From assembly GCA_026994915.1 (NCBI GenBank), contig JALWPY010000169.1, positions 1 to 41,228 of the forward strand: DNA of 41,228 nucleotides. The letters are read 5' to 3'. Shown here one piece after another: positions 3,209 to 7,633 of the stretch (position 1 is its first letter; each line of letters starts with the position of its first letter). The notes beneath the pieces are model-generated. The model did no database searches and was not told where the DNA came from. It saw only the letters and a program-made list of their open reading frames with translations. Made by a program: the position numbers and the translations under genes. Origin of the DNA: Campylobacterales bacterium. Lineage in GTDB: Bacteria > Campylobacterota > Campylobacteria > Campylobacterales > QNZT01.

Positions 3209-3697
3209 CTATACACTCCTTAAAATATATCCGAAATAGACCGCACAAAATCCCAGCAGCGACGCGATCCCGAAGATGTAGTGGGCGATCAGTTTCACAT
3301 TGTCTCTGGCATGCTCGCTGTCACTGGCCAGACAGCGTGCCCTGGCCTCTTTGATCTTGTACCATGCATAGAGCCACAGAAGCACCATAAAGAGCCAGAT
3401 CAGCTCTTTGGAGGTGACCACGACAGACATGACCGGATCCTGATGGGCGTAATCCTTCCCGCCCGCCATCACAAAACCGCTGATCCCCGACATCAGCGCC
3501 ACGGGCACGAGCAGTTTGAAAAAGCGGTTGAGCGTCCTGAGCGACGTGCGCACCGCCATCTTTTCGTTGGGTATCTGCATGACGGAGGGGTAGACGGTGA
3601 GCGAAAACGCGACCATCCCCCCGATCCAGATGATTGCACTGAAAATATGCACGGCAAAGATCAGCGGCAGATAATCGACGTAAAACGCTCCCAACAT
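3209..3697 (-). CDS. Four-TM membrane protein (CopD/DUF4149-like)
   Basis: VHIFSAIIWIGGM motif and four hydrophobic segments; ATG at 3697 overlaps the alaS stop (TGATG). Confidence 0.7.
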   Translation of the reverse strand: MLGAFYVDYLPLIFAVHIFSAIIWIGGMVAFSLTVYPSVMQIPNEKMAVRTSLRTLNRFFKLLVPVALMSGISGFVMAGGKDYAHQDPVMSVVVTSKELIWLFMVLLWLYAWYKIKEARARCLASDSEHARDNVKLIAHYIFGIASLLGFCAVYFGYILRSV

Positions 3698-6249
3698 CAG
3701 CCCTGAAGCGCCTCTTTGACCCACGCTCCGGCCGCTTCGATCGCCTCGCTTAGTTTCGATGCGTCCTTGCCGCCCGCCTGCGCGAAGTCGTCACGGCCAC
3801 CGCCACCACCGCCAAGGATCGGTGCGATCGCTTTGATCCATTCACCCGCTTTGACAGGGGCGTTTTTGACACCGGCCGCCAGTAGCACTTTGTCTCCCTT
3901 TTTCTGAAAGAGCATGACTGCGACGGAGGGTTTCTGGTTCTTGATCTCATCGATCATCTGTTTGATATCGCCCGCTTCGACTATCTCGACCGCGACTTCG
4001 GTGTCGCCGATCTTTTCGAAACGGAGCTCTTTTTTCTGTCCCTGTGCGAGGGATTTGAGCTCGTTTTTGAGTGTCGCGATCTCCTCTTTGAGCCGTTTGA
4101 TCCCCAGCAGCGGATCTCTGTTTTTGACCGCTTCGCTGACGGCCGCTACCGTAGCGCGATACGCTTTGGCCAGTTCGATCGCACTGCGACCCGCCACCGC
4201 CTCGATCCGCCGCACCCCCGCACTCACACCGCTCTCACGGGTGATGAAAAAGGCGCCGATATTGGCCGCATTGTCGACATGGGTACCGCCGCAGAGCTCC
4301 ATGCTCACCTCCCCCATCGAGACGACACGCACCTCATCGCCGTACTTTTCACCGAAGAGCGCCATCGCCCCCCGCTGCTTCGCTTCGTCGATCGCCATCA
4401 CCTCGGTCTGCACCGGCACCCCTCTGGCGATCACTTCGTTGACATAGTTTTCTATCTTTTCGATCTCCTCTTTCGTCAGCGCTTTGGGATGCGAGAAGTC
4501 GAAGCGCAGCCGGTTCGCTTCGACGAGACTTCCCGCCTGGTTGACATGCTCTCCGAGGATCTTTTTGAGCGCACTGTGCAGCAGGTGTGTCGCGGAGTGG
4601 TGCTTGGCAATCTCGAAACGGCTCTCGTCCACTTTCGCATGTACCTTGTCTCCGATATGCAGCGGAGCTTTGGTTTTGATGCGAGAAAGGTTCAGATCGA
4701 AAAACTTCTTCGTATCGAGCACTTCCGCAATCCCTTCGAGTTCGCCGACATCGCCGCACTGTCCTCCGCTTTCGGCATAAAACGGCGTACGATCGAGCAG
4801 CACCCACCCCTCGGCACCTGCCGGCAGTCTCTCGACACGCTTGAAAGAGGCATCGAGCAGTGCCAGTACGTTTGCATCGCATTCGGTCGTTTCGTAGCCA
4901 ACAAAGGTGTTGGTCCCGAATGTTTCCAGCAGCGCTTTGAAATCGCCCTCGACCGCGGCGTCACCACTCCCTTTCCAGGCTGCTTTGGCACGCTCGCGCT
5001 GTGCTTTCATAAGCTTCTCGAATCCTTCGATGTCGACCGAGATCCCCTTCTCGCGCAGCATATCCTGCGTCAGGTCGAGCGGGAAGCCGTAGGTGTCGTA
5101 GAGTTTGAAGGCGACTTCGCCGCTGAAGGTTTTACCCGTCTTTGCCAGCTCCTTCTCGAAGAGCTCCAGCCCCGAAGCGATCGTTCTGAAGAAGCGCTCC
5201 TCCTCCATGCGGATCTGCTCTTTGACAGTGTCGGCCTTTTCGACGATGTAGGGATACTGTTCACCCATGATCTCGCCCAGTGTATCGACCAGGCGATACA
5301 TGAAGGGTTCACGAATACCCAGCAGATAGCCGTGGCGCACCGCACGCCGGAGGATACGGCGCAGGACATAGCCCCGTCCCTCTTTGTCGAAATTGACCCC
5401 CTGAGCGAGCAGAAAGGTGACCGCGCGGATATGATCGGCGATGACGCGAAAGCTCGCCCCCTCTTCGTAGATATAGGGTTTGCCCGAAATCTCGGAGACC
5501 TTTTCGATCAGCGGCATGAAGAGCGAAGTATCGTAGTTGCTGAATTTCCCCTCTTTGATCGCCGTGACACGCTCGAGCCCCATACCGGTGTCGATAGATG
5601 GTTTGGGGAGCGGCGTCAGGTTTCCTTCGCTGTCACGCTCGTACTGCATAAAGACGAGGTTCCAGATCTCCAGAAAGCGGTCCCCTTCGCCGCCCATTTT
5701 ATCTTCGGGAGAGTGGAAATGCTCCGCACCCTGATCGTAGAAGATCTCCGAACAGGGGCCGCAGGGACCGGTATCGCCCATCTGCCAGAAGTTGTCTTTG
5801 TCACCGAAACGCATAATACGGTCTGCGGCGATATGTTTCTTCCAGATCTCCTCCGCTTCGTCGTCACTCTCATGTACGGTGACCCAGAGCTTTTCGACCG
5901 GCAGCTCCAGCACTTCGGTCACAAACTCCCATGCATAGGCGATCGCCTCTTTTTTGAAGTAGTCGCCGAAAGAGAAGTTGCCCAGCATCTCGAAAAAGGT
6001 GTGGTGGCGGTTGGTGTAGCCGACGTTTTCGAGGTCGTTGTGCTTGCCGCCCGCGCGAATACATGTCTGCGAACTCGCCGCACGCGGCGGATTGGGTACG
6101 GGGATCTCTCCGGTAAAGATGCTTTTGAAGGGCACCATCCCGGCATTGGTAAAGAGGAGAGTCGGGTCGTCGGGTACCAGCGGAGCGCTCGGGTAGATCT
6201 TGTGTCCCTTGCTTGCGAAATAGTCCAAAAATGCTTTACGAATATCCAT
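3697..6249 (-). CDS. alaS: Alanine--tRNA ligase
   Basis: [38 protein letters not shown], editing motifs HSATHLLH and ELCGGTH, C-terminal GGGGGR..AQAGG. Confidence 0.99.
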
Positions 6250-6305
6250 ATCAACAATTCCTTTATAAACTGGAGATATTTTATCTGAAAATATTTAAAA
6301 AGGCG

Positions 6306-6579
6306 TTATCACCGCACCAATAAACATACATAATTTTTGAGAGTACGGGAAGGAGTGAGATGTGTGTCAAAAAAACTGAAGGACTAGCCGTAGCTAATTC
6401 GAAGTTTTTTTGGCATACAGATCGCTTCTTCCCGTGCTCCCCGAAGGGTGCAGTGCTTTTGTCCATACTCTGCATTAGATTTTCTTGCATTAGCTACGGC
6501 TAGTCCTACGAAAATCTGCCTTGATTATGAACAAAATCACTGCATCAAAATTTACGTATGTTTATTGGTGCGGTGATAA
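6306..6579. mobile_element. 274-bp MITE-like element with 35-bp terminal inverted repeats and internal hairpins
   Basis: TIRs 6306-6340 and 6545-6579 match at 33/35. Internal perfect 19-bp inverted repeat at 6380-6398 / 6489-6507. No transposase is encoded. Mobility is inferred. Confidence 0.7.
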
Positions 6580-6591
6580 GTTTAAAGCGGC

Positions 6592-6616
6592 CCGGAGCCC
6601 GAAACTGCGGCTCCGG
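6592..6616 (-). terminator. GC-rich hairpin directly after the murG stop, possible terminator
   Basis: ccggagcc (6592-6599) pairs with ggctccgg (6609-6616); the U-tract is weak. Confidence 0.45.
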
Positions 6617-7633
6617 TCAATAACCGAGGTAGTCGACGATTCTGGCGGCACCGTCGGGGGCGATGGTACCCCGGAGCCCCTCACTCATGCGGGCGATATC
6701 CGCATCCAGCACCATCTCCAGATGTTCGGGTGTCAGGGCATCCTGCCGCACGACGAAAGAGAGCCCTTTGTCGGCGAGATATTTGGCGTTGTAGTACTGG
6801 TGATCGCCCGCTGCGTAGGGATAGGGCACGTAGAGTGCGGGCAGCTGCGATGCCGCCAGCTCCCAGAGCGTGCCCGCGCCCGCACGGCAGATCGCGAAAT
6901 CGGCCTCCGCGATCTTTCGGTAGAGTTTTTTGTCGAAGGCGAAGAGATCGGCATCGATACCCTCTTCGTCGTAGAATTTTCGCAGCGCTTCCAGATCGCG
7001 GTTGCCGCTCTGGTGGATGATTTTGATCCCTCTCTCATGCAGGGTGCGTGCGACACTTTTGGCGAACTCGTTGATGGCGGTGGCGCCCTGTGAACCGCCC
7101 AGGAAGATGATCGTTTTGATCTCCTTACGCACCCGTGCGTTGCGAAAAAAGACTTCGCTGACGAGATAGTCTTTGACGGGAGAGTCTTGCATGTAGGCGG
7201 AGAAGATCGCGTTGGCACGGCGGGCGAAGAGTGCGTTGAGGCGTCCCATGACGGCGTTTTGCTCATGAATGTAGAAAACTTTTCTCTGCCAGATCGCGGC
7301 GAGTGTCGCGGGTGCTGCGGCATATCCTCCGACCGAAAAGATCGTTTCGACCCCCTCCTCTTTGAAGATTCTTCCCGCTTCGCGCGCCGCTGTGATGATC
7401 TTCGCCATACTTTTGAGTTTGCCGACGGCCCCTTTGTCGACCACGCTTTCGATCTCGAAAAAGTGTCGGGAAGCGAACCCCTCGTCCTCTCCGAACCACA
7501 TCCTGTCCTGCCCCGTCGCCGAGCCCAGAAAGATCGGTTTGATACCGCGCCTGTTGAGCTCTTCGCGAATCGCCCGCGCGATACTCAGATGCCCGCCGGT
7601 GCCTCCGCCCGTAATCGCTATCTGCTTTTTCAA
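6617..7633 (-). CDS. murG: Lipid II GlcNAc transferase
   Basis: TGGGTGGH, VGGY, HEQN, GGSQGA, RAGAGT, PYPYAAGDHQYYNA. Confidence 0.98.
   Translation of the reverse strand: MKKQIAITGGGTGGHLSIARAIREELNRRGIKPIFLGSATGQDRMWFGEDEGFASRHFFEIESVVDKGAVGKLKSMAKIITAAREAGRIFKEEGVETIFSVGGYAAAPATLAAIWQRKVFYIHEQNAVMGRLNALFARRANAIFSAYMQDSPVKDYLVSEVFFRNARVRKEIKTIIFLGGSQGATAINEFAKSVARTLHERGIKIIHQSGNRDLEALRKFYDEEGIDADLFAFDKKLYRKIAEADFAICRAGAGTLWELAASQLPALYVPYPYAAGDHQYYNAKYLADKGLSFVVRQDALTPEHLEMVLDADIARMSEGLRGTIAPDGAARIVDYLGY

Follow-up and report, generated by a model that had tools for sequence, protein, structure and literature searches.

A mobile, multi-copy MITE with a predicted four-way-junction fold at the alaS–murG locus of a Campylobacterales bacterium

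Locus, parts and predicted fold

The window, the whole 41,228-nt stretch of Campylobacterales DNA analysed here, contains an AT-rich island at positions 6306–6579 between alaS (3697–6249, minus strand) and murG (6617–7633, minus strand). A sequence-only reading had delimited this island as a 274-bp folded element; its structure holds, and the mobile unit is trimmed to 6309–6576 (plus strand), a non-coding stretch of 268 bp with the ends TCACC...GGTGA, situated between the left (6307–6308) and the right (6577–6578) copies of a target dinucleotide TA. These limits follow from the empty alaS–murG site of a congener (G010) and from read contigs that join 6306 directly to 6577, and the unit recurs as 101 distinct full-length copies. 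Its strand is assigned by strand tests, the plus strand of the element being defined as the strand on which arm 1 pairs by G-U instead of A-C.

The outermost part is the closing stem, which is simply a pair of ~35-bp terminal inverted repeats (TIRs). Its 5' half, the left TIR (6306–6340, plus strand), and its 3' half, the right TIR (6545–6579, plus strand), are complementary at 94% of 35 nt (33/35) and covary across the copies. The outer ~14 nt of the left TIR (TATYACCSCRYCAA) are conserved, and the variable inner part covaries with the right end, such that 28 of the 32 closing-stem pairs show double changes. The terminal motif is found at the copy ends, and a reversed control motif gives zero matches. 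Inside the closing stem, arm 1 (6341–6439, plus strand) forms a long hairpin by the pairing of 6341–6377 with 6403–6439, in which 81% of the 37 nt form Watson-Crick pairs and the rest is made up of G-U pairs and a purine-rich GA/GA 2x2 internal loop. A mini-hairpin, CCC-GAA-GGG, occupies 6440–6448 (plus strand) at the junction. Arm 2 (6449–6544, plus strand), defined by the fold and the alignment, is an imperfect hairpin paired between 6449–6470 and 6523–6544 and by further imperfect pairing beyond; it contains the nearly invariant blocks ACTCTGCGTTAGAT and AAATCTGCCTTGATTATGAAC and two invariant U-G pairs. The mini-hairpin and arm 2 together constitute a conserved 110-nt core (6437–6546, plus strand), common to elements with other termini and recognised by a covariance model (R1). 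The tips of the arms are occupied by an AGGACT-[mini stem-loop]-AAT module in arm 1 (6380–6398, plus strand) and by its inverted counterpart, an ATT-[mini stem-loop]-AGTCCT module in arm 2 (6489–6507, plus strand); these two partners of a proposed kissing interaction are complementary at 19 of 19 positions in the window copy. An IHF-like site is seen, by eye only, near the junction of arm 2 and the closing stem.

The minimum-energy RNA fold of the window copy is a four-way junction with zero unpaired junction bases. Its predicted free energy of −144.1 kcal/mol compares with −61.9 ± 5.0 kcal/mol in 200 dinucleotide shuffles (z = −16.3), and 0/200 shuffles fold as well. All pairings that had been drawn by hand are present at their assigned positions. 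Two 25-nt loops had also been described, and the 19-nt complement within them is confirmed, but the predicted fold does not leave the loops open and closes both into small hairpins. A comparison of positions 5800–7100 with Rfam release 15 yields five matches up to E = 10, none near threshold, the best being MIR6024 with 25.4 bits against a gathering score of 72, which agrees with the earlier decision to assign no named family. A promoter and terminator scan gives one promoter-like and one terminator-like site, without excess over shuffles; the promoter-like site of the window falls in a stretch that is variable between copies, and no promoter conserved across the copies was seen by eye. Among the sequencing runs recorded as containing this stretch, none is listed as RNA.

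Mobility, copies and target sites

The element is mobile and multi-copy. In the congener G010, alaS and murG lie ~53 bp apart with a single TA at the position of the element; the empty site reads GCGT-TA-AGC and the filled site GCGT-TA-[TCACC...GGTGA]-TA-AGT. Empty alleles are also found in reads, where position 6306 is followed directly by 6577 in one contig from each of three runs (X2, X3 and X4, belonging to two studies). At this joint 270 bp are missing and the two sides overlap by the 2 nt TA; the joint is absent from the run in which the window is best represented. A second copy with 75% identity is located on another contig of the source genome, between thyX and a rhodanese gene, in the arrangement CTCC-TGA-[TTACC...GGTAA]-TGA-ACCCCATCGA. 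The corresponding empty sites of two congeners read CACCCC-TGA-ATCCCATCGA and CCCC-TAA-ACCCCATCGA, and judged against these two sites the duplication of the second copy is TGA, 3 bp, which is the thyX stop codon.

The flanks of the family were measured from the conserved core ends, which are recognisable in 97 of 100 copies. Among these 97, TA stands on both sides in 67, a 3-bp T-N-A duplication in nine and a 4-bp T-NN-A duplication in two, so that 78 copies have identical 2–4-bp flanks, and 19 show no flank identity. In the reconstructed target, T precedes the TA in 64/100 copies and A follows it in 62/100. Insertion duplicates a short T...A target, which is TA at the alaS–murG site. A strict TA-only enzyme does not fit, since 3- and 4-bp duplications occur. 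The TA-flanked ends had been taken as typical of IS630/Tc1-type targets; the TA flank and its duplication at the site bear this out, and a strict IS630/Tc1 assignment is not sustained, given the 3- and 4-bp duplications and a search that returned no matching transposase.

Matches to the element exist in 30 of 61 related genomes, with up to 22 in one 2.1-Mb genome and none in three congeners. An exact 20-mer of arm 2 occurs in at least 119 stretches of public genomes labelled Sulfurovum, Nitratifractor, Sulfurimonas, 'Sulfurospirillum' and Campylobacterales, one complete Sulfurovum chromosome included; the complete Sulfurovum genome holds four copies. Among the matches listed, which come from Sulfurovum/Nitratifractor-like genomes, 122 full-length hits reduce to 101 distinct copies. 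Genome copy number and empty sites in relatives had been proposed as checks, and the proposal of a non-autonomous mobile element is backed by precise empty alleles, an empty congener site and 101 dispersed copies. The element has the attributes of a MITE, namely TIRs, a short target duplication relative to the empty site, a small non-coding body and numerous dispersed copies whose presence or absence differs between relatives; in the searched genomes, most of which are fragmented bins, no autonomous partner bearing matching ends was found.

Each of the 60 copies that could be scored lies in an intergenic region. In 17 the element runs in the same direction as both neighbouring genes and in 15 opposite to both, and the neighbours are divergent in 19 cases and convergent in nine; these counts are approximate because they are based on crude longest-ORF calls for 60 of the 101 copies, with the upstream neighbour of the window copy mis-called (alaS is cut by the slice). 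Among these 60 copies there is no orientation preference relative to host genes. In 17 of the scored copies an outward-pointing gene start is no more than 40 nt away from the right end, and in nine it is no more than 40 nt away from the left. Decayed forms accompany the full-length copies. Solo TIRs of 25–30 nt, one of them in the source genome, are often situated directly 5' of a Shine-Dalgarno (SD) sequence and ATG; in addition, there are 44-nt TIR–TIR minis, end fragments, a 150-bp deletion form that has lost arm 2 through GGTGC microhomology, and one locus in which the same TIRs enclose another interior. With up to ~20 matches in a 2-Mb genome, the preference for positions near gene starts and the solo ends and deletion forms, the family shapes intergenic regions and fragments metagenome assemblies. 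Carriage by viruses was considered and rejected: 0/3 hits in a viral collection contain the element, and each consists of the bare shared 20-mer, taken as a chance match, one inside a P22-type portal ORF, one inside an oxidoreductase ORF and the third in a stretch without a Pfam match.

The search for a transposase or HUH gene with the same termini, another check that had been proposed, came back empty in genomes that are mostly fragmented bins, where IS copies often fail to assemble. The IS630-type domain PF13358 occurs in 0/5 copy-rich genomes and in 3/32 host-family genomes. NF033545 scores over its cut-off in one of the 32 (G016), a genome in which the full-length element has no DNA match; the G016 IS630 has ends, TA-AGTAATCA, unlike those of the element. 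Y1/HUH genes (PF01797) are present in 23/32 host-family genomes and do not track the copies: G008, G013 and G018 have copies without a Y1 hit, and G016 has 16 Y1 hits and no full-length match to the element. IS4/IS5-type genes (PF01609) are found in 17/32 genomes; among ten such IS loci none matches the element profile, and four are bounded by inverted repeats of at least 14 nt, none resembling the ends of the element. Widely spaced pairs of the TIR motif gave no transposase partner, reading through 18 orphan TIRs did not lead to a transposase ORF in any case, and no transposase with matching ends was found in the complete Sulfurovum genome. Two kinds of candidate were set aside. A solo TIR in Sulfurovum, at a distance of 1.27 kb from a copy, turned out to sit at the end of a gene for a cation-antiporter-like membrane protein; of three hits to the left half only, two end at contig ends and one is the 150-bp deletion form.

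Pairing across the family and strand asymmetry

The family alignment comprises 96 distinct copies, the five of 101 with 20–45-nt insertions being left out. The RNAalifold consensus contains 104 pairs, and 68 of them are changed on both sides with the pair kept in at least one copy, compared with 42.0 ± 2.2 in shuffles (0/500 reach this number) and with 25–31 when the partners are slid by 1–3 columns. Simultaneously, 98.2% of the cells are paired, against 86.3 ± 0.2% in shuffles (0/500) and 40–46% with slid partners, although such cell counts overstate independent events because the copies are related, the consensus being derived from the same alignment that is counted and the shuffle control ignoring relatedness. 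As judged from this alignment, pairing in all helices is kept through many double substitutions, and conservation of the predicted fold exceeds that seen in the controls.

The imperfections of the helices are distributed unequally between the two strands. In arm 1, 488 G-U cells stand against 17 A-C cells, and G-U and A-C occur in two or more copies at 17 and 4 of 36 pairs, respectively. The earlier remark that the deviations in arm 1 are G-U on the plus strand only thus extends to the whole family. In the closing stem, the counts are 37 G-U and 27 A-C (in at least two copies at 7 and 6 of 32 pairs). In arm 2, they are 212 G-U and 25 A-C (7 and 6 of 34 pairs), and 191 of the 212 G-U cells originate from the two invariant U-G pairs, which are held in 96/96 and 95/96 copies, leaving 21 against 25 otherwise. 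A strong excess of G-U over A-C is therefore seen in arm 1 only, with the closing stem and arm 2 behaving symmetrically. The plus strand is predicted to fold better than the minus strand in 92/96 copies with RNA parameters (mean difference 11.2 kcal/mol) and in 79/96 with DNA parameters (mean 3.0 kcal/mol), and both strands are very stable, with mean fold energies of −129.9 and −118.7 kcal/mol. The asymmetry arises from the element itself, since copies lie in either orientation and read-through transcription sets no preferred strand; its source would be a transcript of the element's own or a strand-specific step of transposition. A purely RNA-level constraint would not predict the missing strand preference in the closing stem and arm 2.

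The two arm tips had been read as a kissing-loop switch, a proposal that the family does not bear out. The 19/19 complementarity is found in one of 96 copies, that of the window, with a median of 13/19 in the window's register. The flanks of the loops (AGGACT/AGTCCT and AAT/ATT) are complementary in 89–96 copies and the central positions in 8–50 of 96, and the 96 copies show no covariation between the two loops. The variable tip bases pair within their own tip, as TAGC/GCTA in the window; the corresponding pairings of the second copy are TACCT/AGGTA (arm 1) and TCGC/GCGA (arm 2). A covariance model built on the mini-hairpin and arm 2 matches arm 1 on the minus strand, with E-values of 8.4e-4 for the window and 2.5e-6 for the second copy, which shows arms 1 and 2 to be diverged inverted copies of one module. 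The complementarity of the tips follows directly from this origin, the tips being inverted copies of one subterminal hairpin module, and the apparent loop–loop kissing is, on this comparison of copies, a by-product of inverted duplication and not a switch.

Smaller motifs vary to different degrees. In DNA, a GAA triloop with a closing C-G pair is very stable, and the mini-hairpin had been regarded as noteworthy for this; however, the triloop is GAA in 70/96 copies, AAA in 11 and of nine other forms in the remaining 15, which does not support selection for C-GAA-G as such. The mini-hairpin 9-mer CCCGAAGGG is intact in 64/96 copies, and one copy bears a compensatory CTC..GAG. The 2x2 loop of arm 1 is GA/GA in 50 of 96 copies, GA/GG in 28 and GA/GC in eight. 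In the 5' half of arm 1, an SD-like GGAG/GAGG stands 4–9 nt before an ATG in 71/96 copies, and a small-protein gene was considered here and rejected, there being no conserved ORF: the frame after the ATG measures one codon in 38 copies and 2–64 codons otherwise, and this variable and often minimal length argues that the motif is not a gene. Speculatively, it might be a relic of the translation start of a parent element.

Related systems and competing explanations

In kind, the element is an ordinary bacterial MITE, and it behaves most like bcr1 and the Correia/NEMIS elements. Correia elements characteristically duplicate TA and undergo RNase III cleavage, and the likeness extends to the want of a firmly known cognate transposase and to a hairpin-forming transcript, a Correia feature that the element would share. 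Going by excerpts of one account (PMC3184786), the Correia/NEMIS elements of Neisseria measure 104–157 bp, have 26-bp TIRs, often lie 5' of genes and carry promoters; they resemble the present element as MITEs with TIRs frequently placed just 5' of genes, and differ in that their TIRs form a single hairpin, whereas the element has two long internal arms, a 110-nt core found between different termini and a strand-specific arm. In excerpts of the same source (PMC3184786), bcr1 of the Bacillus cereus group is a repeat of ~155 bp with 5-bp direct repeats, cruciform-like with two stem-loops, transcribed, its RNA fold kept by compensatory changes. By description only, bcr1 and the element share a small, dispersed non-coding repeat, short direct-repeat flanks, a predicted cruciform-like fold and compensatory changes; however, bcr1 is a ~155-bp repeat of Firmicutes (PMC3184786), and the element, at 268 bp, has TIRs of 35 bp, duplications that are mostly TA and, as a third hairpin, the mini-hairpin at the junction.

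Two transposon classes offer partial parallels. The MITEs of IS630/Tc1-mariner transposons share with the element the TIRs and the duplicated TA, seen at most copies (67/97). The defining feature of that class is duplication of TA only, whereas the element also has 3- and 4-bp duplications and lacks a matching transposase in the genomes searched. IS200/IS605 elements and the PATEs derived from them lack TIRs and target duplications and are marked by subterminal hairpins that are strand-specific, together with a host-encoded Y1 transposase. The subterminal hairpins, the strand-specific structural constraint and the presence of Y1 genes in the same genomes are parallels; in contrast, the element has long TIRs and flank duplications, and Y1 genes do not co-occur with its copies. 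An assignment to the IS200/IS605 type or to PATEs was rejected, as the strand-specific hairpin is the only feature of that class found and TIRs and duplications are present.

No description of the family was found in the full-text literature searched, a coverage that excludes subscription journals. In a term search of a 2024 review of prokaryotic MITEs (PMC10969869), Campylobacter, Helicobacter and Epsilonproteobacteria do not occur, and the one paper found to name both miniature inverted-repeat and Sulfurovum (PMC3733652) concerns REP-type repeats. The element is thus a recently mobile, well-defined MITE of an apparently undescribed but widespread family in sulfur-oxidising vent bacteria. It goes beyond a routine MITE in its strand-specific arm, its core placed between different termini across the order, its 2–4-bp T...A duplications and its missing transposase. 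Vent and sediment Campylobacterota are key chemolithoautotrophs, and the literature searched yielded no account of the small mobile DNA in these bacteria; the family is worth masking and annotating, lest it be mistaken for a regulatory RNA. With a strand-specific arm beside strand-blind stems and a shared core, it is also a natural system in which to study what maintains MITE hairpins, be it RNA function, an ssDNA stage or replication-linked correction.

The best explanation as a whole, and probably the right one, is a MITE moved in trans, whose fold is maintained and for which a single-stranded form of the plus strand is relevant. The element would be mobilised by a transposase not encoded nearby that makes 2–4-nt staggered cuts at T(N0–2)A, where movement in trans is proposed by analogy because no transposase with matching ends was found. 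The fold would matter in a single-stranded form of the plus strand, to which arm 1 points by tolerating G-U and not A-C whatever the orientation of the copy to the host genes. This form may well be RNA, the best guess, as reported for bcr1 and Correia elements; a plus-strand transcript, borne by the element or arising by read-through, would collapse into a compact four-way junction. The main alternative to RNA is an ssDNA stage. A somewhat unlikely account retains the same MITE and has its pairing kept by DNA-level processes only, with quasi-palindrome template switching in replication and a requirement that the two ends bound by the transposase match as candidates, without any functional single-stranded fold. 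Template switching corrects quasi-palindromes in bacteria, and many of the double changes are transversion swaps (GC↔CG, UA↔AU) with few intermediates, a pattern that copy correction would yield. Together with the missing strand preference in the closing stem (37 versus 27) and in arm 2 (21 versus 25 outside the two fixed U-G pairs), these swaps fit a DNA-level constraint equally well, and the high stability of both strands (−129.9 and −118.7 kcal/mol) is in line with it. However, strand-blind correction would remove G-T as readily as A-C, and arm 1 retains 488 G-U against 17 A-C over 17/36 pairs; the two U-G pairs of arm 2 are never 'corrected' (96/96 and 95/96), the purine-rich 2x2 internal loop stays unpaired, and 13 families have retained the same core although its termini differ.

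If single-strandedness instead belonged to transposition, the plus strand would be excised as ssDNA, the four-way junction would join its ends, and an HUH-type or other structure-specific enzyme would act on it. Selection at the level of transposition would explain naturally why the strand asymmetry is family-wide whatever the gene orientation; DNA hairpins tolerate G-T, a GAA triloop on a closing C-G pair is very stable as DNA, the plus strand is the more stable with DNA parameters in 79/96 copies, and Y1 genes are common (23/32 host-family genomes). Such a route is nevertheless quite improbable: long TIRs and 2–4-bp flank duplications are not known as features of IS200/IS605-type elements, the Y1 genes do not track the element (G008, G013, G018 and G016), the closing stem, which ssDNA would require to pair, has no G-T tolerance, the strand difference with DNA parameters is small (3.0 kcal/mol), and the copies show no gene-direction bias (17 versus 15), a weak proxy for replication direction. 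A resident structured ncRNA gene or riboregulator of alaS–murG with a kissing-loop switch is hardly credible. A congener and contigs from three runs have the site without the element, its copies sit between unrelated genes in either orientation, and there is no match to an Rfam family; the very stable fold and the helix covariation would suit it, and so would the 19/19 loop complementarity of the window copy, but that complementarity is complete in 1/96 copies, its centre is without covariation, and the loops are predicted to close on themselves.

In more distant genomes, the same architecture and conserved blocks are found with different termini. The element of G034 has the ends TA-GACTTCTTGCAAAAC, a predicted minimum free energy of −134.8 kcal/mol (z = −15.3) and the same core with a different TIR; G039 has a shorter single-hairpin form, and both elements are TA-flanked. 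The model of the 110-nt core, R1, was built from 44 sequences drawn from 86 distinct ones plus the G034 element, and its E-values are rough. Of 151 genomes that sample the order, 45 contain a match, and these represent 13 of its 26 families; the per-genome matches overstate the number of elements ~2–3-fold because both strands and both arms score. In a bolder and rather doubtful reading, neither the 110-nt core nor the strand-specific arm would be a transposon end; both would belong to a functional single-stranded module, either a structured RNA or a four-way-junction ssDNA intermediate, riding between interchangeable termini throughout Campylobacterales. If true, this would be an undescribed kind of structured mobile RNA or ssDNA element, with a junction fold recognised by the mobilising or host machinery. 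In the read contigs, the depth over arm 2 reaches thousands, compared with ~10 for the flanks; contig depth is not copy number, and this high depth fits arm 2 as the most widely shared part of the element.

Surroundings and internal motifs of the element

In the window, the 268-bp element is flanked by a G+C-rich hairpin (GCGGCCCGGAGCC...GGCTCCGG; 6588-6618), situated between the murG stop codon and the element, and by the -10 region of alaS. The hairpin may act as the murG terminator, and a 10-nt direct repeat, CCCGGAGCCC, located at 6591-6600 and 6670-6679, extends into murG. Within arm 1, the long hairpin of the element, an SD-like site followed by ATG-TGA, a start codon and an immediate stop, occupies window positions 6350-6362 and the equivalent place in other copies. 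The ATG-TGA follows the SD-like site in 38 of the 96 aligned copies, and in the folded model it would be sequestered inside the arm-1 stem.

Variant copies, remnants and an adjoining second repeat

Five full-length copies (L124, L148, L110, L100, and L096) carry insertions of 20-45 nt, giving element lengths of 294-317 nt, and are omitted from the 96-copy alignment. In the window's own genome, a solo terminal inverted repeat (TIR), TATCACCGCACCAATAAATATC (G000:C94:1049-1075; L231), lies immediately 5' of AGGAG and then ATG; it is the leftover of a third element copy in this genome, situated in a gene leader.

Several orphan TIRs adjoin a second small repeat with ends resembling GAA(C/T)CCTCTGAAAAA, as in the orphan-TIR loci L215, L216, and L229 of genomes G005 and G008; in L229, this repeat is flanked on both sides by TIRs of the 268-bp element. 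These same ends bound DDE_Tnp_1 (IS5-like) genes of approximately 340 aa in L263 (G019:C120) and L265 (G021:C24). Given these shared ends, the second repeat appears to be an IS5-derived MITE family of its own, whose partner is present.

Y1_Tnp-domain ORFs and outlying matches

In many host-family genomes there is one Y1_Tnp-domain ORF, which is 230-280 aa long and matches the domain weakly (E 1e-13 to 1e-17), for example, at G019:C52:6182-6514, G014:C38:15767-16087, and G004:C95:4245-4565. Such an ORF differs from the IS200-type TnpA of approximately 140 aa and may represent a RAYT-like domesticated gene. One Y1_Tnp-domain ORF, G005:C186:1489-1791, is separated from an element copy by a distance of 1.5 kb.

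The exact 20-mer AAATCTGCCTTGATTATGAA is present in three otherwise unrelated IMG/VR viral contigs (L193, L194, and L195), preceded by G in each, and in two of them it falls within ORFs, for a P22-type portal and an FAD-oxidoreductase. These occurrences are treated as chance, although three matches slightly exceed expectation. Among the matches listed, one full-length copy resides on a 2.7-kb contig, JANTGP010000305.1 (L118), from a bin labelled Bacteroidetes, a label that is probably a binning error; the remaining carriers all belong to Campylobacterota.
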